Notes under the pieces: generated by a model | What the model was told of the DNA's origin: nothing | Databases searched by the model: none | The model's input: the letters and a program-made list of their open reading frames with translations, nothing else | Shown: positions 18,168 to 27,911 of the stretch, piece by piece | Numbering within the stretch: the stretch's first letter is position 1 | How the letters are laid out: every line of letters starts with the position of its first letter | Position numbers and translations under genes: made by a program | Assembly (NCBI GenBank): GCA_048886185.1 | Contig: JBHLKY010000016.1 | Coordinates: 60,001-92,000, forward strand | Length of the DNA: 32,000 nucleotides | DNA from: Candidatus Hermodarchaeota archaeon | GTDB lineage: Archaea; Asgardarchaeota; Heimdallarchaeia; Hodarchaeales; Hodarchaeaceae | Direction: 5' to 3'

Positions 18168-20084
18168 TTATGTTGTCAAGGTTTGAAGAACCATGTTCAG
18201 GCTTTCGATCATGGAATCTAGCTTAAATTTAGAATCTGCAAGTAGTAGAAGATCTCTTTTTGCTGATAAGCGGGAGATCCGAGTTTCAACAACACTCCTC
18301 ACTTCTCGCTGATTACTTTTGGGATTCTTTTCGACCCAATCTAATAATAAGGAAATAGAATGTGTGAATTTTGTAATTGCACGACTTTCATCCTCTTCTT
18401 TTAGTAATATAATTGCAGCATTGTGATAAGCAGTACTTGCTCTACGTAAACTAATTAGGGCATTAATCAATGTTTTTTCCTTTTGATCAGAGGCATTAGG
18501 AAGTGTTGATAAACCTTTGGTACTAGAAAGAAACATTTCCGCAGCTTTTTCAAAATCTTCCAATATGAAAAGTGTATTAGCATATTGAATTTGAACCGGA
18601 ATAATTTCTGAGACTGGAGCTTTTGCAGAGGTTAAACATTGAAGGGCAAGATCAAATGAATTTAGAGCTGTCGAAAACGTATTCATTTTCTCCTCTATTT
18701 TGCCTTTCTCAAAAGTAATCAATCCTAAAAGCCTATTTTCTCTACTCTCTGATTCTCTCTCCTTTAATAATGTAGATGCCCGAGAAAGTAATTTATATGA
18801 TCTTTCTAGATCCCTAATCATTCGTGCGCCATCATATAATGACTTTGCTGCCGAGATACAATCTCCGGCCTCAATAAATAGGTCTGTAGCCTTCTCTAGA
18901 AGCATGACTCCTTTTTCTTTATTTCCAAGTGAGAAATAGGCACTTACCGCTAAAATTAATGATGTTGCAGCTTTTTGAGGACTTTCTTCGGTTGATTGTA
19001 ATAACCTAGATGCTTCTTCTCTCTGTTCAGCTGATCTCCGAATTAATCCAAAGGCATAAGCAGGATTTTCTTCTTTTTCTTTATCAGCTTGATACATCAA
19101 TCTACTAGCGAAAGTTGATGAATATTCTGCAGCAAGCTGTTTATCCATTTCTATTGCTAATCGAACTGCTTTCTCAAAACAGACATTAGCCTCTTCATAG
19201 CGAGCTTGCTCGTGGAGTACAATCCCCATATCATAATTAAGTGATGCAATCAGTGAGGGATCCTTTATCCAAAGTATTGCTCCTTGGATGAGTTCAATCG
19301 CTTTCTCATATTCTTCTAGATAATAAGCACACTTGCCTGCCAAATATGATGCTTCTCCTGCTTCCTCAAAAAGTCGGACACGAGTGTAGCAATTTGTAGC
19401 TTTTTCGAATGCCTCACCTGCTTCTTGATAACTATTTCCCATTAAAAAAATCTTACCAACTAATGTAAAAGCAAGTCCAGCTCCCTTATCGTCGATATTC
19501 TCTAATCGGTTTGCCACTCGTAAGGCAGTCCAAAGTTGACTTCTATCCTTAAGGTTCTCCCATGCATCTTTTGCTGTTTCAAGATCTTTCAAAGCTCGTG
19601 GAATTGCATATTCCATATCTTCCTCTAAGGTAATACCTTTAAATTCCTCTCTGTTTTCAGGAGGATGAAAGGATTCTACAATCTTTTCCCAAACAGTTTG
19701 AGCAGAGAAGTCTGATTTCTCTTTTTTCAAAATATCTAAATAGACAAAAATAGAATCATCTAGATGATCCCCAAGCATTTCTCCAGTAGCCTGATCAGCT
19801 AGAAATGCCAAAAAAAAAGGACGTTCTTTTCCCCGTAAAGAAGGATCTGGCCACGAATCAAACGCAACACGAGTTTTTACATCTTGGCCTAGACTTAACA
19901 AGGGAACAGAAAATTCTGTTCGCTGTGAGTGACCATGCTGGCCAAAAACTGTTACAGACGCGAGATAAATTTGTAGTGCAACAGATTCAGGATCGTTCAA
20001 AGCAGTATGCGGAAACAGAGAAATTATGGATGGGCCTGAAATGTCATCCCACCGAACTGCTAGGATTGTAAGATCCATTCTCAT
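18168..20084 (-). CDS. Longin/uDENN-like domain fused to a long TPR / alpha-SNAP-like helical repeat
   Basis: aa 1-140 follow the longin beta-beta-alpha-beta-beta-beta-alpha-alpha pattern with WDDISGPSIISLFP and DPSLRGKERPFFLAF. The rest is Ala/Tyr-patterned helical repeats, e.g. EAGEAFEKATNCYTRV and EEANVCFEKAVRLA. Confidence 0.75.
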   Translation of the reverse strand: MRMDLTILAVRWDDISGPSIISLFPHTALNDPESVALQIYLASVTVFGQHGHSQRTEFSVPLLSLGQDVKTRVAFDSWPDPSLRGKERPFFLAFLADQATGEMLGDHLDDSIFVYLDILKKEKSDFSAQTVWEKIVESFHPPENREEFKGITLEEDMEYAIPRALKDLETAKDAWENLKDRSQLWTALRVANRLENIDDKGAGLAFTLVGKIFLMGNSYQEAGEAFEKATNCYTRVRLFEEAGEASYLAGKCAYYLEEYEKAIELIQGAILWIKDPSLIASLNYDMGIVLHEQARYEEANVCFEKAVRLAIEMDKQLAAEYSSTFASRLMYQADKEKEENPAYAFGLIRRSAEQREEASRLLQSTEESPQKAATSLILAVSAYFSLGNKEKGVMLLEKATDLFIEAGDCISAAKSLYDGARMIRDLERSYKLLSRASTLLKERESESRENRLLGLITFEKGKIEEKMNTFSTALNSFDLALQCLTSAKAPVSEIIPVQIQYANTLFILEDFEKAAEMFLSSTKGLSTLPNASDQKEKTLINALISLRRASTAYHNAAIILLKEEDESRAITKFTHSISLLLDWVEKNPKSNQREVRSVVETRISRLSAKRDLLLLADSKFKLDSMIESLNMVLQTLTT

Positions 20085-23257: not shown

Positions 23258-24613
23258 TCATGACTCGCCTTTAATTTCCTCGTAAATCTCTTTTACACTA
23301 TCAAAAGTGACTTTTAATCTTCGTTCAGAAATTTTTTCGACAACCTTATCTATTATTTCACCTTTTGCTCCCATGGAAGCAGCTAGGTTCCTCGCATGTA
23401 ATTTCATATGCCCCGCTTGAATACCTACTGTAGCTAAGGCTCTCAATGCCCCAAAATTTTGCGCCAACCCAACTGCAGCCATAATTTCTGCAAGTTTAAG
23501 AGCTCCGCCTGGAACACTTAAACCAAGGATTTTAAAAGAAATTTGAGCAAGGGGATGAATACGAGCGACCCCACCAATTAATCCCACTGCTAGAGGAATT
23601 TCAATTGTACCTACTAGATCTCCATTCCCATTTTTTTCCCATGTTGTCAGAGAAGAATATTTCCCTGGAGTCTTGACAGCAGCATAAGTATGAGCACCTG
23701 CTTCTATTGCTCTCCAATCTTGAGCAGTAGCAATGGCAACAGCATCAATACCATTCATGATACCTTTGTTGTGTGTACTACATCTATAAGGATCAGCTTC
23801 TGCGAAGGCGTAAGCATGAAGAATCCCATTAACAACTTCTGTTCCTTTCATTTCTTTGGTGTTTAATTCATCAGATTTGAAAATTGCTCTTGCTCTCACT
23901 AATCTACGATCTGCTAGATTTGATATTATTCTTAAGAGGGATTCACCGTCTGTAATTTTTTCTAGAATGGGAGCAACTGCCTCATTCATTGTATTGACAG
24001 CATTAGCTCCCATTGCGTCACGAACGTCTACCAATAGTTCAGTAATGACCATTGTTCCATGTATAGTATCTGTCAATACTTTTACTTGTATTCCTTGACA
24101 TCCTCCTCCAAATTTAACCAAAATAGGATCTTGCTTGTTTGCCAGCTCAACAATTTCTTTCTCTTTTTCTAGAATTTTCTCTCGGGCGTTATGAGGATCA
24201 GGTACATTGATCAACTGGATTTGGCCTATCATGATAGGAGCTGTGCTGCTAGTAAAGAATCCACCTCCTGCACGGGCGATTTTTGCCGAGTTTGATGCGG
24301 CTGCTACCACCGAAGCTTCTTCAATAGCCATGGGAATTAAGTAATCCACTCCATTGATAGTGAAATTAGTTGCAATACCTAATGGAATTTGCATAACTCC
24401 AATCGTGTTTTCAATATAATGCCCTTGACCAGCTCTGTCTAAAATTAACGTTGATTGTTTTATATAATCTATATCTTCTTGACTTAGGTTACACAATTTC
24501 TGAATTATATCCTGACGTTCCTTGGGGCTTTTCCTGAAGAAACCCGATATACGAGAATTTAATTTTTGATCAACACTCACTTTAAAGCATCCTAAACACT
24601 TTTTAGCCAACAT
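23258..24613 (-). CDS. mvaA: Hydroxymethylglutaryl-CoA reductase, class II (bacterial/degradative type)
   Basis: IENTIG, PMAIEEASVVAAASN, MIGQIQL, DAMGANAVN, THNKGIMNGIDAV, GIQAGHMKLH. The true start is probably the GTG near 24580. Confidence 0.93.
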   Translation of the reverse strand: MLAKKCLGCFKVSVDQKLNSRISGFFRKSPKERQDIIQKLCNLSQEDIDYIKQSTLILDRAGQGHYIENTIGVMQIPLGIATNFTINGVDYLIPMAIEEASVVAAASNSAKIARAGGGFFTSSTAPIMIGQIQLINVPDPHNAREKILEKEKEIVELANKQDPILVKFGGGCQGIQVKVLTDTIHGTMVITELLVDVRDAMGANAVNTMNEAVAPILEKITDGESLLRIISNLADRRLVRARAIFKSDELNTKEMKGTEVVNGILHAYAFAEADPYRCSTHNKGIMNGIDAVAIATAQDWRAIEAGAHTYAAVKTPGKYSSLTTWEKNGNGDLVGTIEIPLAVGLIGGVARIHPLAQISFKILGLSVPGGALKLAEIMAAVGLAQNFGALRALATVGIQAGHMKLHARNLAASMGAKGEIIDKVVEKISERRLKVTFDSVKEIYEEIKGES

Positions 24614-24772: not shown

Positions 24773-25615
24773 TTAGGATTCTACGTTCACACCGATAAAG
24801 GTATCCGCGGGGCATGAAAAGTATACAGAATTACCTTTAGGTATTGGAATGTAAAGATCATCTAGTTCTAAGATTGGTACCCCTTCTTGAAGGTAAATGG
24901 CTAATATGGGTTTCTTTGTTTTACAATTCGATGTTTTGCCATCTTTGGGAATGCAATAAAAAGCAATTCTGCCCTCTGTAGCTGCTGTTGAAATATGAAG
25001 GGTAGTCAAAATAAGGTCTTGATTAGTGGCTTTGAATAGTAATATAGCCCTAGTTTCAGGTATAGCTGTGTCCACTTCCTCACTATAGTACACCATTTCC
25101 ATTTTTTCTGATTCAATTCGTTGTGATTCGACTATTGGTGGAGAAGGTTTAAGCGAGCTCTCTACTGTTTTTGTTTTCATTGGAGTTTGTGTTTTAATTG
25201 AGTCAACCTTTTTTAAGGTAGTAGGATGAGTGATTATTTCTGTTGGTTTAGAATCTGGCAGGTCAATCGATATTGAAGGAGGGGAAACCTCTAATAGAGT
25301 ACTAGCTCCAATCTCTTTACCTTTAAGACTATCAATAAAATCCCAAAATTTCAAAGTTTCATTTCCTTGATCTTCTGTGGATATTTTATGAGTAAGACCT
25401 CTTTCAAGTCTCATTTGTCGTGCAATTTGGGAGCTAATGAATCGTTTTCGAACCGAAGAATTTGAACCAGTCCAAATGAAGATATCTCGATTTTCTTCAT
25501 CAAGAAAAATGAGGACTTCTGTTTCTTTCATATCCTTATCAGGACTTGTGAATTTAACTGGAACATATTCACCATCCATTGATGGTACGAAGACATGTAC
25601 GCTCTGTTCATTCAT
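24773..25615 (-). CDS. Single gelsolin-like domain protein with a Ser/Thr/Pro/Lys linker and a C-terminal beta-sandwich domain
   Basis: EVLIFLDEENRDIFIWTGSNSSVRKRFISSQIARQM...EDQGNETLKFWDFI matches the gelsolin repeat consensus (lD...ifvW.G..s....r..a..ia......v.qG.E...Fw). Confidence 0.85.
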   Translation of the reverse strand: MNEQSVHVFVPSMDGEYVPVKFTSPDKDMKETEVLIFLDEENRDIFIWTGSNSSVRKRFISSQIARQMRLERGLTHKISTEDQGNETLKFWDFIDSLKGKEIGASTLLEVSPPSISIDLPDSKPTEIITHPTTLKKVDSIKTQTPMKTKTVESSLKPSPPIVESQRIESEKMEMVYYSEEVDTAIPETRAILLFKATNQDLILTTLHISTAATEGRIAFYCIPKDGKTSNCKTKKPILAIYLQEGVPILELDDLYIPIPKGNSVYFSCPADTFIGVNVES

Positions 25616-25947: not shown

Positions 25948-26049
25948 GCGGAGGTACCAAAGTGGCTATAATATCGGGATTAATAGCCCTATTGGCTAAG
26001 GAGCAGCCTGCAAAGCTGTATTACGCGTGTTCAAATCACGCCCTCCGCT
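25948..26049 (+). tRNA. trnC: tRNA-Cys(GCA) with a 30-nt non-canonical intron in the D-arm; CCA not encoded
   Basis: Acceptor GCGGAGG/CCTCCGC with U73 discriminator; anticodon arm GCAGC-CTGCAAA-GCTGT (GCA at 26010-26012); T-arm GCGTG-TTCAAAT-CACGC. Removing 25970-25999 gives a 72-nt tRNA with D-stem CCA/TGG. Confidence 0.9.
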
Positions 26050-26105: not shown

Positions 26106-27911
26106 ATGGCTACTACTCTTTTTGATGTTGTTGTACTTGATACTAATTTCTTCATTTCCTTACTGAATGCTGGTGTATCAGATATATTATTACCCAATTT
26201 ACAACATATTGCTACTTCCGTTGGTATGGATGTAATGGTTCCCGAGGAACTTCCAAAATCAGATATCCCAAACCGATTTCGAGAATTAAGAAGCCTAATT
26301 CCAAAACATGTTCGGATGGAGCGAGTTAATCGTGGATCTAATCTTTGGAATCAAACAGCTAGATATGCGGTACAAGAACGAATGGTTAGGGTAAATGATG
26401 ATCCTACTGATATAGATGTTATAATCCTAGCAAAAAAATTTTCGCTTAAGGATAACAATAAGGTTGCTTTAGTATCTGATGATGAGGGAGTTGCTCGAAT
26501 TGTTAAAGAAAACCAAAAATTCAAGGGGATTGATCATCTTTCCTGTGGTTCATTTGTTTCTATTCTTGCTGCAGCAGTATCAGATCCAAAAATGCGAGAT
26601 ATTTTAGACAAGACTGTTGAACGTGTATTTCGTGCTTCTTGGAGTTACAAGAAGAAAACACGACGATATATCGATGTTGCCATGTTGATCAGTGATTTAA
26701 CTGATACAGCTCGATTTGTACGGACTGCAGCTCAGGTTGGTGTTGAACCTTCAATCGAGGAGATCAAGGAAGATAGCGTTGAGCCTATTCCTACGAAAGA
26801 GCCTGAGGTCATGAGACCTGAAGATGCTTTAATTATTGCTCAACAATTAGTGATTAAAGCAAGAGAGACACGTGAGAGCTTTAATGTGCTGGAGGCAGAA
26901 CGAGTTCTTATTGAAATCCTAACGAAAAGTTCTGAACTGATCTATACAATTGATAATCTTGAACAGCGGGTGATTGTTGAACGTTTGCTTCGTTCAGAGC
27001 TGTTTGAACATCATAGCTGGCTCCTAGATTATAAATTAACACGAAATCAAATTGTAGAGGCTTTTGTCCACGCGGAAGCATGCCGTGTTTTCATGAATTT
27101 TATATCGGTTGGAAGAGAGGCCATTGAAAATCTTATTTCTCTTCAAGGTTTATTATATTTATTGTTAGGTCAATATACTCAAGCTCTTCACTTATTTGAA
27201 TCAATTCCTGTAATTGAGACTGAAATGCCTCCAACTCAGCTCCTTGGGCTTACTGTTTCGTTAATAGCGACTAACCAGTTAAATGATGCATTCTTACAAT
27301 TGAAACGTTTTCCAGCTCTTCTTGACGGTATGATATCATCGATGCATACTTATGCAAATGATCTTTATACTCATGATCAGCGTGAATTAGCTATAGAAAT
27401 CCTTAAATTTATAGTTAAGAATTTTGGCGACCGTAAAGAGACTTTCCCTTCAATTAAGCGACTTTTTATTCTCACTAGGATTCGACCAGACCTTGTGGAA
27501 ATTGATTTAAAAGTTCAAAAATTTTTTAAAGAAAAATTAAAAGAGGAGGGAAAAGATCTTACATCACGGGGTATCCCTTCTTCTTGGCGGAAGATGCTTC
27601 CCATTGAAATTCCTGCTGCTGAAACTAAGGAACTAATTGAGCAGTTTAAGGGCTTTTATCATATACTAGATTTAGTTGTAGATCATGAACGTAATGAATT
27701 GAACGTTATTGCCTGGAATGAGAGTAATAATTCAACATGGAAGCTTGTTTTTGATGAAGCATATAAACCTGCATTAGAGGAGAGTGTAAAAATCAAAATA
27801 ACTTCTGGAAGTATTATAAAAATCCATCAATCTGAAAAAAGGGAGAATTATCGTGGCAAAATAATATTTGAAGATCCTGCGATTCAACCTGTTCTTGTTA
27901 AACCTTGGTAG
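26106..27911 (+). CDS. PIN-domain protein with C-terminal helical (TPR-like) region and terminal beta domain
   Basis: VVVLDTNFFI (D12), DPTDIDVIILA (D102/D104) and ALVSDDEGV (D125/D126) give the PIN acidic cluster; aa 240-470 show helical-repeat patterning. Confidence 0.78.
   Translation: MATTLFDVVVLDTNFFISLLNAGVSDILLPNLQHIATSVGMDVMVPEELPKSDIPNRFRELRSLIPKHVRMERVNRGSNLWNQTARYAVQERMVRVNDDPTDIDVIILAKKFSLKDNNKVALVSDDEGVARIVKENQKFKGIDHLSCGSFVSILAAAVSDPKMRDILDKTVERVFRASWSYKKKTRRYIDVAMLISDLTDTARFVRTAAQVGVEPSIEEIKEDSVEPIPTKEPEVMRPEDALIIAQQLVIKARETRESFNVLEAERVLIEILTKSSELIYTIDNLEQRVIVERLLRSELFEHHSWLLDYKLTRNQIVEAFVHAEACRVFMNFISVGREAIENLISLQGLLYLLLGQYTQALHLFESIPVIETEMPPTQLLGLTVSLIATNQLNDAFLQLKRFPALLDGMISSMHTYANDLYTHDQRELAIEILKFIVKNFGDRKETFPSIKRLFILTRIRPDLVEIDLKVQKFFKEKLKEEGKDLTSRGIPSSWRKMLPIEIPAAETKELIEQFKGFYHILDLVVDHERNELNVIAWNESNNSTWKLVFDEAYKPALEESVKIKITSGSIIKIHQSEKRENYRGKIIFEDPAIQPVLVKPW

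Follow-up and report, generated by a model that had tools for sequence, protein, structure and literature searches.

What does a single gelsolin domain do when it is joined, through a long disordered linker, to a small all-beta domain? This question is raised by a gene of Candidatus Hermodarchaeota archaeon (assembly GCA_048886185.1) on contig JBHLKY010000016.1, in a stretch of 32,000 nucleotides (contig positions 60,001 to 92,000) that was analysed as a whole and is called the window here; coordinates are those of the window unless another contig is named. The first-pass annotation described the product as a gelsolin domain followed by an S/T/P/K linker and a beta-rich domain. It likened the latter to the nucleoplasmin core, and proposed a new gelsolin architecture that might act as an oligomeric actin cross-linker. 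Our analysis suggests that the protein is probably an oligomerising actin regulator, with a C-terminal domain (C-domain), a predicted jelly-roll, that adds a new X domain to the Asgard '1DGelX' gelsolins, a class with a loose definition. The gene and its three parts are listed below by coordinates, strand and basis, with residues given in amino acids (aa).

24773..25615, minus strand: the whole gene, 280 codons plus stop, encoding gelsolin domain, linker and jelly-roll domain (list of open reading frames, ORFs, with translation).
25292..25615, minus strand: single gelsolin domain of the ProGel/1DGelX type, aa 1-108 (phmmer against PDB, Pfam match below cut-off, fold match to 7c2f_B).
25103..25291, minus strand: disordered S/T/P/K-rich linker, aa 109-171 (predicted local distance difference test, pLDDT; composition; length).
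24776..25102, minus strand: C-terminal single jelly-roll beta-sandwich, aa 172-280 (AlphaFold2, AF2; structure searches; four-copy co-fold).

The minus-strand frame is open throughout, begins with ATG and has a Shine-Dalgarno-like GAGAGGT just upstream. No signal peptide was found when the protein sequence was read directly. A search of 5.8 billion proteins returned 84 relatives with the same architecture, collinear over their full length and, bar a few truncated entries, 270-306 aa long; where the source gives a name, these homologues come from Heimdall/Hodarchaeales metagenome bins. An alignment of 40 homologues contains 37 invariant columns. Mean pairwise identity in the family is 68% over aa 1-108, 29% over aa 109-171 and 53% over aa 172-280, and this is the pattern of folded domains on either side of a free linker; the linker is basic as well as disordered. 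Since the homologues are collinear, many columns are invariant and identity follows the domain boundaries, we conclude that the gene is real and under selection. The three-part layout that had been proposed holds in Pfam and phmmer matches, in pLDDT and in the AF2 model, and the interval previously assigned to the beta domain (24776-25096) does encode aa 174-280.

The N-terminal domain belongs to the gelsolin superfamily, as it has both significant sequence similarity to known members and the gelsolin/cofilin fold. In a phmmer search of PDB, it matches Asgard two-domain gelsolins (2DGels) whose structures were solved on actin: the Heimdall 2DGel 7whf_G with E 6.3e-8, the Loki 2DGel with 1.8e-7 and the Thor 2DGel3 with 2e-5, and, more weakly, villin (5e-4) and Thor ProGel (1.3e-3). 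The Pfam family PF00626 matches aa 37-91 (E 0.002, 18.3 bits, under the 21-bit cut-off), and a precomputed match to it is present in eleven family members. When the full-length AF2 model is superposed on Thor ProGel 7c2f_B, a structure solved on actin, the template-modelling score (TM) normalised by target is 0.74, with a root-mean-square deviation (rmsd) of 2.9 Å over 89 columns. When the gelsolin region by itself was the query of a word-index search, every match came from this same family, and no other architecture for this gelsolin subtype was seen. Three features of the domain bear on how it might act.

25466..25474, minus strand: 'WxG' signature of gelsolins, W48-T49-G50, unchanged across the family alignment.
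25400..25447, minus strand: long, nearly invariant helix, aa 57-72 (KRFISSQIARQMRLER), a helix in the AF2 model and presumed to bind the actin cleft.
25445..25447, minus strand: Lys57, which stands opposite Glu of the Heimdall, Loki and Thor 2DGel domains in HMMER alignments.

The WxG motif is in use as a signature of gelsolins (PMC9433394). Across the 40 aligned sequences, the invariant residues of the domain include W48, G50, K57, F59-Q67, R69 and E71, and nearly all of the helix is fixed. By analogy with gelsolin G1 and with ProGel-actin structures, aa 57-72 is presumed to be the helix that enters the actin cleft. Lys57, at its start, is aligned with E in 7whf_G, 7whg_G and 7c2g_G. We take the Glu at the equivalent position of gelsolin G1 to be the bidentate ligand of the type II Ca2+ site. 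That Glu, a feature of calcium-regulated members rather than of the whole superfamily, is replaced by Lys57 throughout the family, and calcium switching is therefore unlikely; judged from this residue, the gelsolin domain is probably calcium-independent. In the same genome, D/E is retained at this position by the 2DGel, and R or S is found there in the paralogues with one domain.

About five further gelsolin-domain genes are present in the genome. On contig 6 (locus L004, 1447-2400, plus strand), a 318-aa frame encodes a second protein with one gelsolin domain and an X domain. Its gelsolin part is 41% identical to that of the window protein, with Arg at the position of Lys57. A long linker of PT/A repeats comes next, and then a C-terminal domain of ~110 aa that is unrelated and has no Pfam match, which makes the protein a further '1DGelX' whose X is different. 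Contig 22 (locus L001, 1093-2253, plus strand) encodes a two-domain gelsolin (Pfam E 7e-23) that has acidic residues at the Ca2+ position and a C-terminal extension of ~170 aa, which includes a proline-rich stretch.

The C-domain of the window protein is, in its AF2 model, a small single jelly-roll. Modelled alone (aa 170-280, with a 40-sequence alignment), it reaches a pLDDT of 94.6 and a predicted TM score of 0.87. Nine strands are seen, at 174-181, 190-194, 201-210, 215-222, 238-242, 248-251, 256-258, 263-268 and 272-279 in full-length numbering, and the eight segments that had been picked out by eye (MVYYSE, AILLFK, DLILTTLHIS, RIAFYCI, KPILAIYL, PILELDDLYIPIP, SVYFSC and TFIGVNV) coincide with strands of the model. 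Searches with Foldseek, VIA-align, ESM Atlas and BFVD all return jelly-rolls. The most conserved stretch of the domain, aa 251-277, falls in the family pattern ELDDLxIPIPxGNSIYFTCPxxTFIGxN, and it holds one further feature of interest.

24854..24865, minus strand: L251-D252-D253-L254, nearly invariant acidic loop (conservation; touching in all four modelled copies).

A co-fold with controls supports self-association of this domain, as the first-pass annotation had proposed. In ESMFold2, four C-domain copies were folded together, each with its alignment, beside three controls. The interface score (ipSAE) was 0.46 for the four copies (runs 0.46, 0.50 and 0.41) vs 0.02 for the best control, at least 89% of contacts were common to the runs, and partner pLDDT was at least 83. 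In calibration, 20 of 30 solved homo-pairs and 1 of 23 single chains came up to the mark, counts that serve only as a rough guide here, being based on two copies and on folding without a user-supplied alignment. In the predicted assembly, face A of one copy (domain residues 5-11, 35-44 and 102-108) contacts face B (residues 67-88) of the scored copy, and another copy sets its residues 71-86 against residues 5, 35-44 and 108 of the scored copy. The opposite copy touches only via residues 74, 76 and 83-84, and residues 83-84 are found in the interface table for every copy. Read from this contact list, the pattern suggests a closed head-to-tail ring, whose axis probably runs near QEG and near the DD loop (D252, D253), itself nearly invariant.

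Nucleoplasmins form pentamers, as do viral pentons. The top structural neighbours of the C-domain are rings as well, namely the pentameric YomS and XepA (PMC6834076) and the hexameric turret base of HFTV1 (PMC12494034). We tentatively favour, at a little less than an even chance, a jelly-roll ring that would carry four to six ProGel-type domains on tethers of 60-80 residues and would make the protein a multivalent, calcium-independent gelsolin.

The distribution of the C-domain supports this reading of a multivalent ring. A profile of the domain finds one copy in the genome of the window and a single copy in 19 of 21 other genomes of the same family-level group, always fused to this gelsolin domain, and such a record of single copies that stay fused points to selection on the combination. 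The two genomes of the group without a match are 71% and 74% complete. Among 379 other genomes of the phylum, none matched the profile (0/379), and the domain is thus restricted to one clade.

Several points weigh against a ring. Conservation at the predicted interface hardly exceeds that of the remaining residues (mean top-residue frequency 0.69 vs 0.62). Passing the co-fold reports the model's own confidence, which may include a memory of ring-forming jelly-rolls, and with the copy number fixed at four the closed tetramer may have been forced. The conserved stretch aa 251-277 might just as well bind a ligand, and monomeric binding jelly-rolls, carbohydrate-binding modules (CBMs) and lectin-like domains, are also among the structural matches (CBM35, CBM51, CBM6, cleaved adhesin and the BNR-associated N domain). 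The jelly-roll might, then, be a monomeric targeting or binding module whose target would be the side of the actin filament, a membrane, a glycan or another protein, and which would thereby bring the gelsolin domain to its site of action; a published hypothesis that the extension of 1DGelX holds an actin side-binding element (PMC7444086) is in line with this. We nevertheless rate such a module, the main rival, as less likely than the ring: the four-copy co-fold passed widely over its controls, minimal jelly-rolls that form rings, and not CBMs, match the domain most closely in size and coverage, and a protein that lacks a signal peptide is unlikely to have an extracellular glycan as its target.

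To which jelly-rolls is the C-domain most similar? In Foldseek against PDB, the top matches are bromovirus coat proteins (E 4e-4, TM ~0.47), followed by C1q/TNF, Ena pilins and CBMs. The comparison with nucleoplasmin-like (NPL) domains that the first-pass annotation called for does return those of FKBP53 and FKBP39 (TM 0.34-0.46), but at ranks 38-44, with viral jelly-rolls matching equally well or better. When the top 1000 Foldseek matches were re-examined, the scores were 8.0 for HFTV1, 7.9 for YomS, 7.7 for Npm2, 7.6 for NPM1, 7.5 for NO38 and 7.4 for HDT4, and 7.0-7.2 for other HDT, PfNPM and FKBP43 entries; the NPL matches are therefore tied with, or below, unrelated viral jelly-rolls. The superposition on Npm2 covers 87 of 95 residues, with an rmsd of 2.7 Å and 17% identity. 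Viral matches in PDB comprise the HFTV1 turret base, YomS/XepA, STIV A223, and phage baseplate and fibre tips. Matches in ESM Atlas are 99-100% viral clusters (TM 0.69-0.70 by query, up to 0.79 by target), and BFVD holds 84 matches at E <= 0.001, with TM up to 0.70; both sets include small phage proteins of unknown function, with TM up to 0.70. A feature search of ESM Atlas returned only hypothetical clusters of Promethearchaeota, at 0.79-0.80, below the meaningful level.

In sequence the domain stands alone. At E <= 10, Pfam searches with the C-domain and 40 family members gave no match to Nucleoplasmin or NPL (PF03066, PF17800) and no recurring family, only scattered chance matches (DIPSY, SPOC_AIPP2 and others). 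No nucleoplasmin or NPL match was obtained in PDB by phmmer or with a profile of the 40 C-domains; the best PDB match of that profile, Rpn8 (E 0.02 over 31 residues), was judged to be chance. When aa 160-280 were searched by phmmer against 1.84 billion representative proteins, there were nine matches, all of the same family or its fragments, and no sequence relative of the C-domain was found among the IMG/VR viral contigs. P0085 was set aside as a separate relative, being a fragment on a 671-base contig. Two metagenome gene calls, P0086 and P0087, place the last ~35 residues of the jelly-roll behind unrelated N-termini, and we reject both as real domain fragments, since they are probably chimeric contigs, frame errors or gene-call artefacts.

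These results bear on the suggestion of a prokaryotic relative of the nucleoplasmin fold. The C-domain does have the eight-stranded jelly-roll core of ~100 aa that characterises nucleoplasmins, and to this extent the suggestion stands; the likeness is real only at the level of fold. The part of it that implied kinship fares less well, as neither Pfam nor PDB provides a sequence link, and no acidic tract or tail was found in the C-domain, where the protein stops at the last strand and ELDD is the sole acidic motif. Nor is charge conserved, the net charge ranging from -7 to +4 and the isoelectric point (pI) from 4.5 to 9.1 across the family. Homology to nucleoplasmins is unproven and unlikely. 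In its strongest form, it would make the C-domain a true, very distant homologue of the eukaryotic NPL pentamerisation domain, kept in the order thought closest to eukaryotes. The similar size (~100 aa) and the predicted ring-type self-association agree with this, as does the clade, which is Hodarchaeales by the source names of the homologues and is currently placed closest to eukaryotes (PMC10307638). We give it very little credence, given the standing of the NPL domains in the structural rankings, the empty sequence and profile searches, the lack of an acidic tract and the variable pI. The domain is also missing from all 379 sampled genomes of other Asgard families, and a recent, clade-specific acquisition therefore fits better than an ancestral pre-eukaryotic domain. 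If this homology were true, the NPL fold would predate the nucleus and its first use would have been to make cytoskeletal proteins multivalent; weakly supported as it is, the link would bear on the origin of nuclear chaperones.

A sudden appearance in one clade, together with the best structural matches in PDB, ESM Atlas and BFVD being viral, could also mean that a small jelly-roll of a phage or archaeal virus, of the YomS/XepA, turret-base or penton kind, was captured and then joined to a ProGel-type gelsolin that the ancestor of the clade already had. We regard this capture as improbable. Neither IMG/VR nor, outside the family, the 1.84 billion representative proteins contain a sequence relative, the margin over cellular jelly-rolls is <1.5 Z units, and, with jelly-rolls abundant in viral libraries, the ranking may be an effect of sampling. 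A viral origin concerns descent, and it is compatible with either function, ring or monomeric module.

Between the two domains lies the linker, in which two short motifs can be recognised.

25277..25297, minus strand: LLEVSPP, aa 107-113, conserved at the exit of the gelsolin domain (V110 nearly invariant, P112 invariant).
25205..25228, minus strand: HPTTLKKV, aa 130-137, a short linear motif that some family members retain (alignment and homologue counts).

In the full-length AF2 model, aa 110-169 have pLDDT <50, and 65% of the linker consists of S/T/P/K/A/E. Its length across the family is 56-82 aa, and most members have a basic linker (median pI 9.1). An LLEV(S/T)P-type pattern marks the gelsolin exit in 63 of 80 full-length homologues. 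The second motif, in the form HPxTL[KR]x[VI], is found in 33 of the 80 and in at least two subclades, with the strict L[KR][KR][VT] at this site in ~22. Its LKKV resembles what we take to be the core of actin-binding WH2 motifs, and we note this as a lead only. Profilin recruitment through polyproline was considered and rejected as a feature of the family, proline runs of at least four being present in only 8 of 40 members; the longest run in the window protein is two.

A possible mechanism can be assembled from these parts. The protein would regulate actin in the cytoplasm of a single family-level clade of Hodarchaeales, to which it is specific. Its gelsolin domain, lacking a calcium switch if Lys57 has the effect proposed above, would place helix aa 57-72 in the cleft at the barbed face of an actin subunit. 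The disordered basic linker of 56-82 residues would act as a flexible tether with two short conserved motifs, and the jelly-roll of ~107 residues would self-associate head to tail into a closed ring, with the ELDD loop near its axis. Such a ring would display several tethered gelsolin domains and thereby create a multivalent actin binder, which might gather monomers, as in nucleation, or cap, sever or bundle several filaments simultaneously. Oligomerisation would do here what domain duplication does in eukaryotic gelsolins. Of this scheme, the analysis shows the architecture, the fold, the limitation to one clade and the change to Lys57; actin binding, the ring with its copy number and any effect on filaments are inferred.

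The surroundings of the gene are shared with related genomes, and its immediate neighbours are the following.

23258-24613, minus strand: HMG-CoA reductase, same strand as the gelsolin-jelly-roll gene, which it follows after a gap of 162 bases.
26106-27911, plus strand: 601-aa ORF with no Pfam match, divergent from the gelsolin-jelly-roll gene.

The order of divergent 601-aa ORF, gelsolin-jelly-roll gene and HMG-CoA reductase is kept in 11 of 11 relatives inspected. In these genomes the neighbours are 75-88% identical, vs 42-70% for the gelsolin gene, and because the neighbours are so similar we attribute the kept gene order to close kinship and not to functional linkage. Upstream of the gelsolin-jelly-roll gene, on the plus strand, an Rfam tRNA match at 25986-26041 scores 27.4 bits (<29-bit gathering score) and spans model positions 9-63. 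It is compatible with a candidate intron-bearing tRNA-Cys at 25948-26049; ARAGORN found no tRNA upstream of the gene. Elsewhere in the window, a gene at 18168-20084 (minus strand) encodes a 638-aa protein that contains tetratricopeptide repeats and matches the family of SNAP, the soluble NSF attachment protein, at E 2.8e-10, and the next two same-strand genes upstream of it have no Pfam match.

How does this protein compare with known systems? By definition, members of the 1DGelX class combine one gelsolin domain with an unknown domain X, and the X of Thor 1DGelX was predicted by I-TASSER to be a coiled coil (PMC7444086). The window protein likewise consists of one gelsolin domain followed by a non-gelsolin domain. 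Since the class is already published in these terms, the claim of a new gelsolin architecture narrows to a new X domain, the jelly-roll, and not a new class. We found no paper that describes a jelly-roll X fold or this gelsolin-jelly-roll family. Like Thor 1DGelX, the protein has a single ProGel-type gelsolin domain and then an unrelated C-terminal domain; the X domains, compared by description, differ, being a predicted coiled coil in Thor and an all-beta jelly-roll behind a linker of 56-82 aa here. To our knowledge, gelsolins of the 1DGelX type have no eukaryotic counterpart. Thor 1DGelX severs actin without calcium control (PMC7444086), and calcium independence, measured in that case, is only expected, from Lys57, in the Hodarchaeales protein.

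YomS and the C-terminal domain of XepA, both from Bacillus prophage lytic cassettes (PMC6834076), match the fold of the archaeal domain over its whole length, with no detectable sequence relation. The function of these phage proteins is unclear, and their partner domain is another jelly-roll, whereas that of the archaeal protein is a gelsolin. NPL cores (Npm2, NPM1, NO38, dNLP, the N domains of FKBP39/43/53 and plant HDT1-4) are found with FKBP, HDAC-type or chaperone tails, and the partner here is cytoskeletal; the archaeal domain shows neither sequence or profile similarity to them nor their acidic tracts, and matches them no better than it does viral jelly-rolls. Eukaryotic gelsolin/villin and Ena/VASP are similar only in how they work, by holding several actin-binding units together for severing, capping, nucleation or bundling. 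They share with the archaeal protein a flexible, partly proline-rich linker beside the actin-binding unit. The source of multivalency differs: tandem duplication in gelsolin/villin, a coiled-coil tetramer in Ena/VASP and, as we propose, a jelly-roll ring here.

Gelsolins are among the few regulator families known for the Asgard actin cytoskeleton (PMC7444086, PMC9433394, PMC13716822), and the protein described here appears to be a conserved, single-copy member of the actin toolkit in one clade of Hodarchaeales. For at least one lineage, domain X of this 1DGelX class now has a concrete predicted fold. Its apparent route to multivalency, a ring-forming jelly-roll on a long tether with no tandem duplication, is undescribed for gelsolins and, if the ring is real, would offer a simple and experimentally tractable model for the effect of valency on a one-domain gelsolin.
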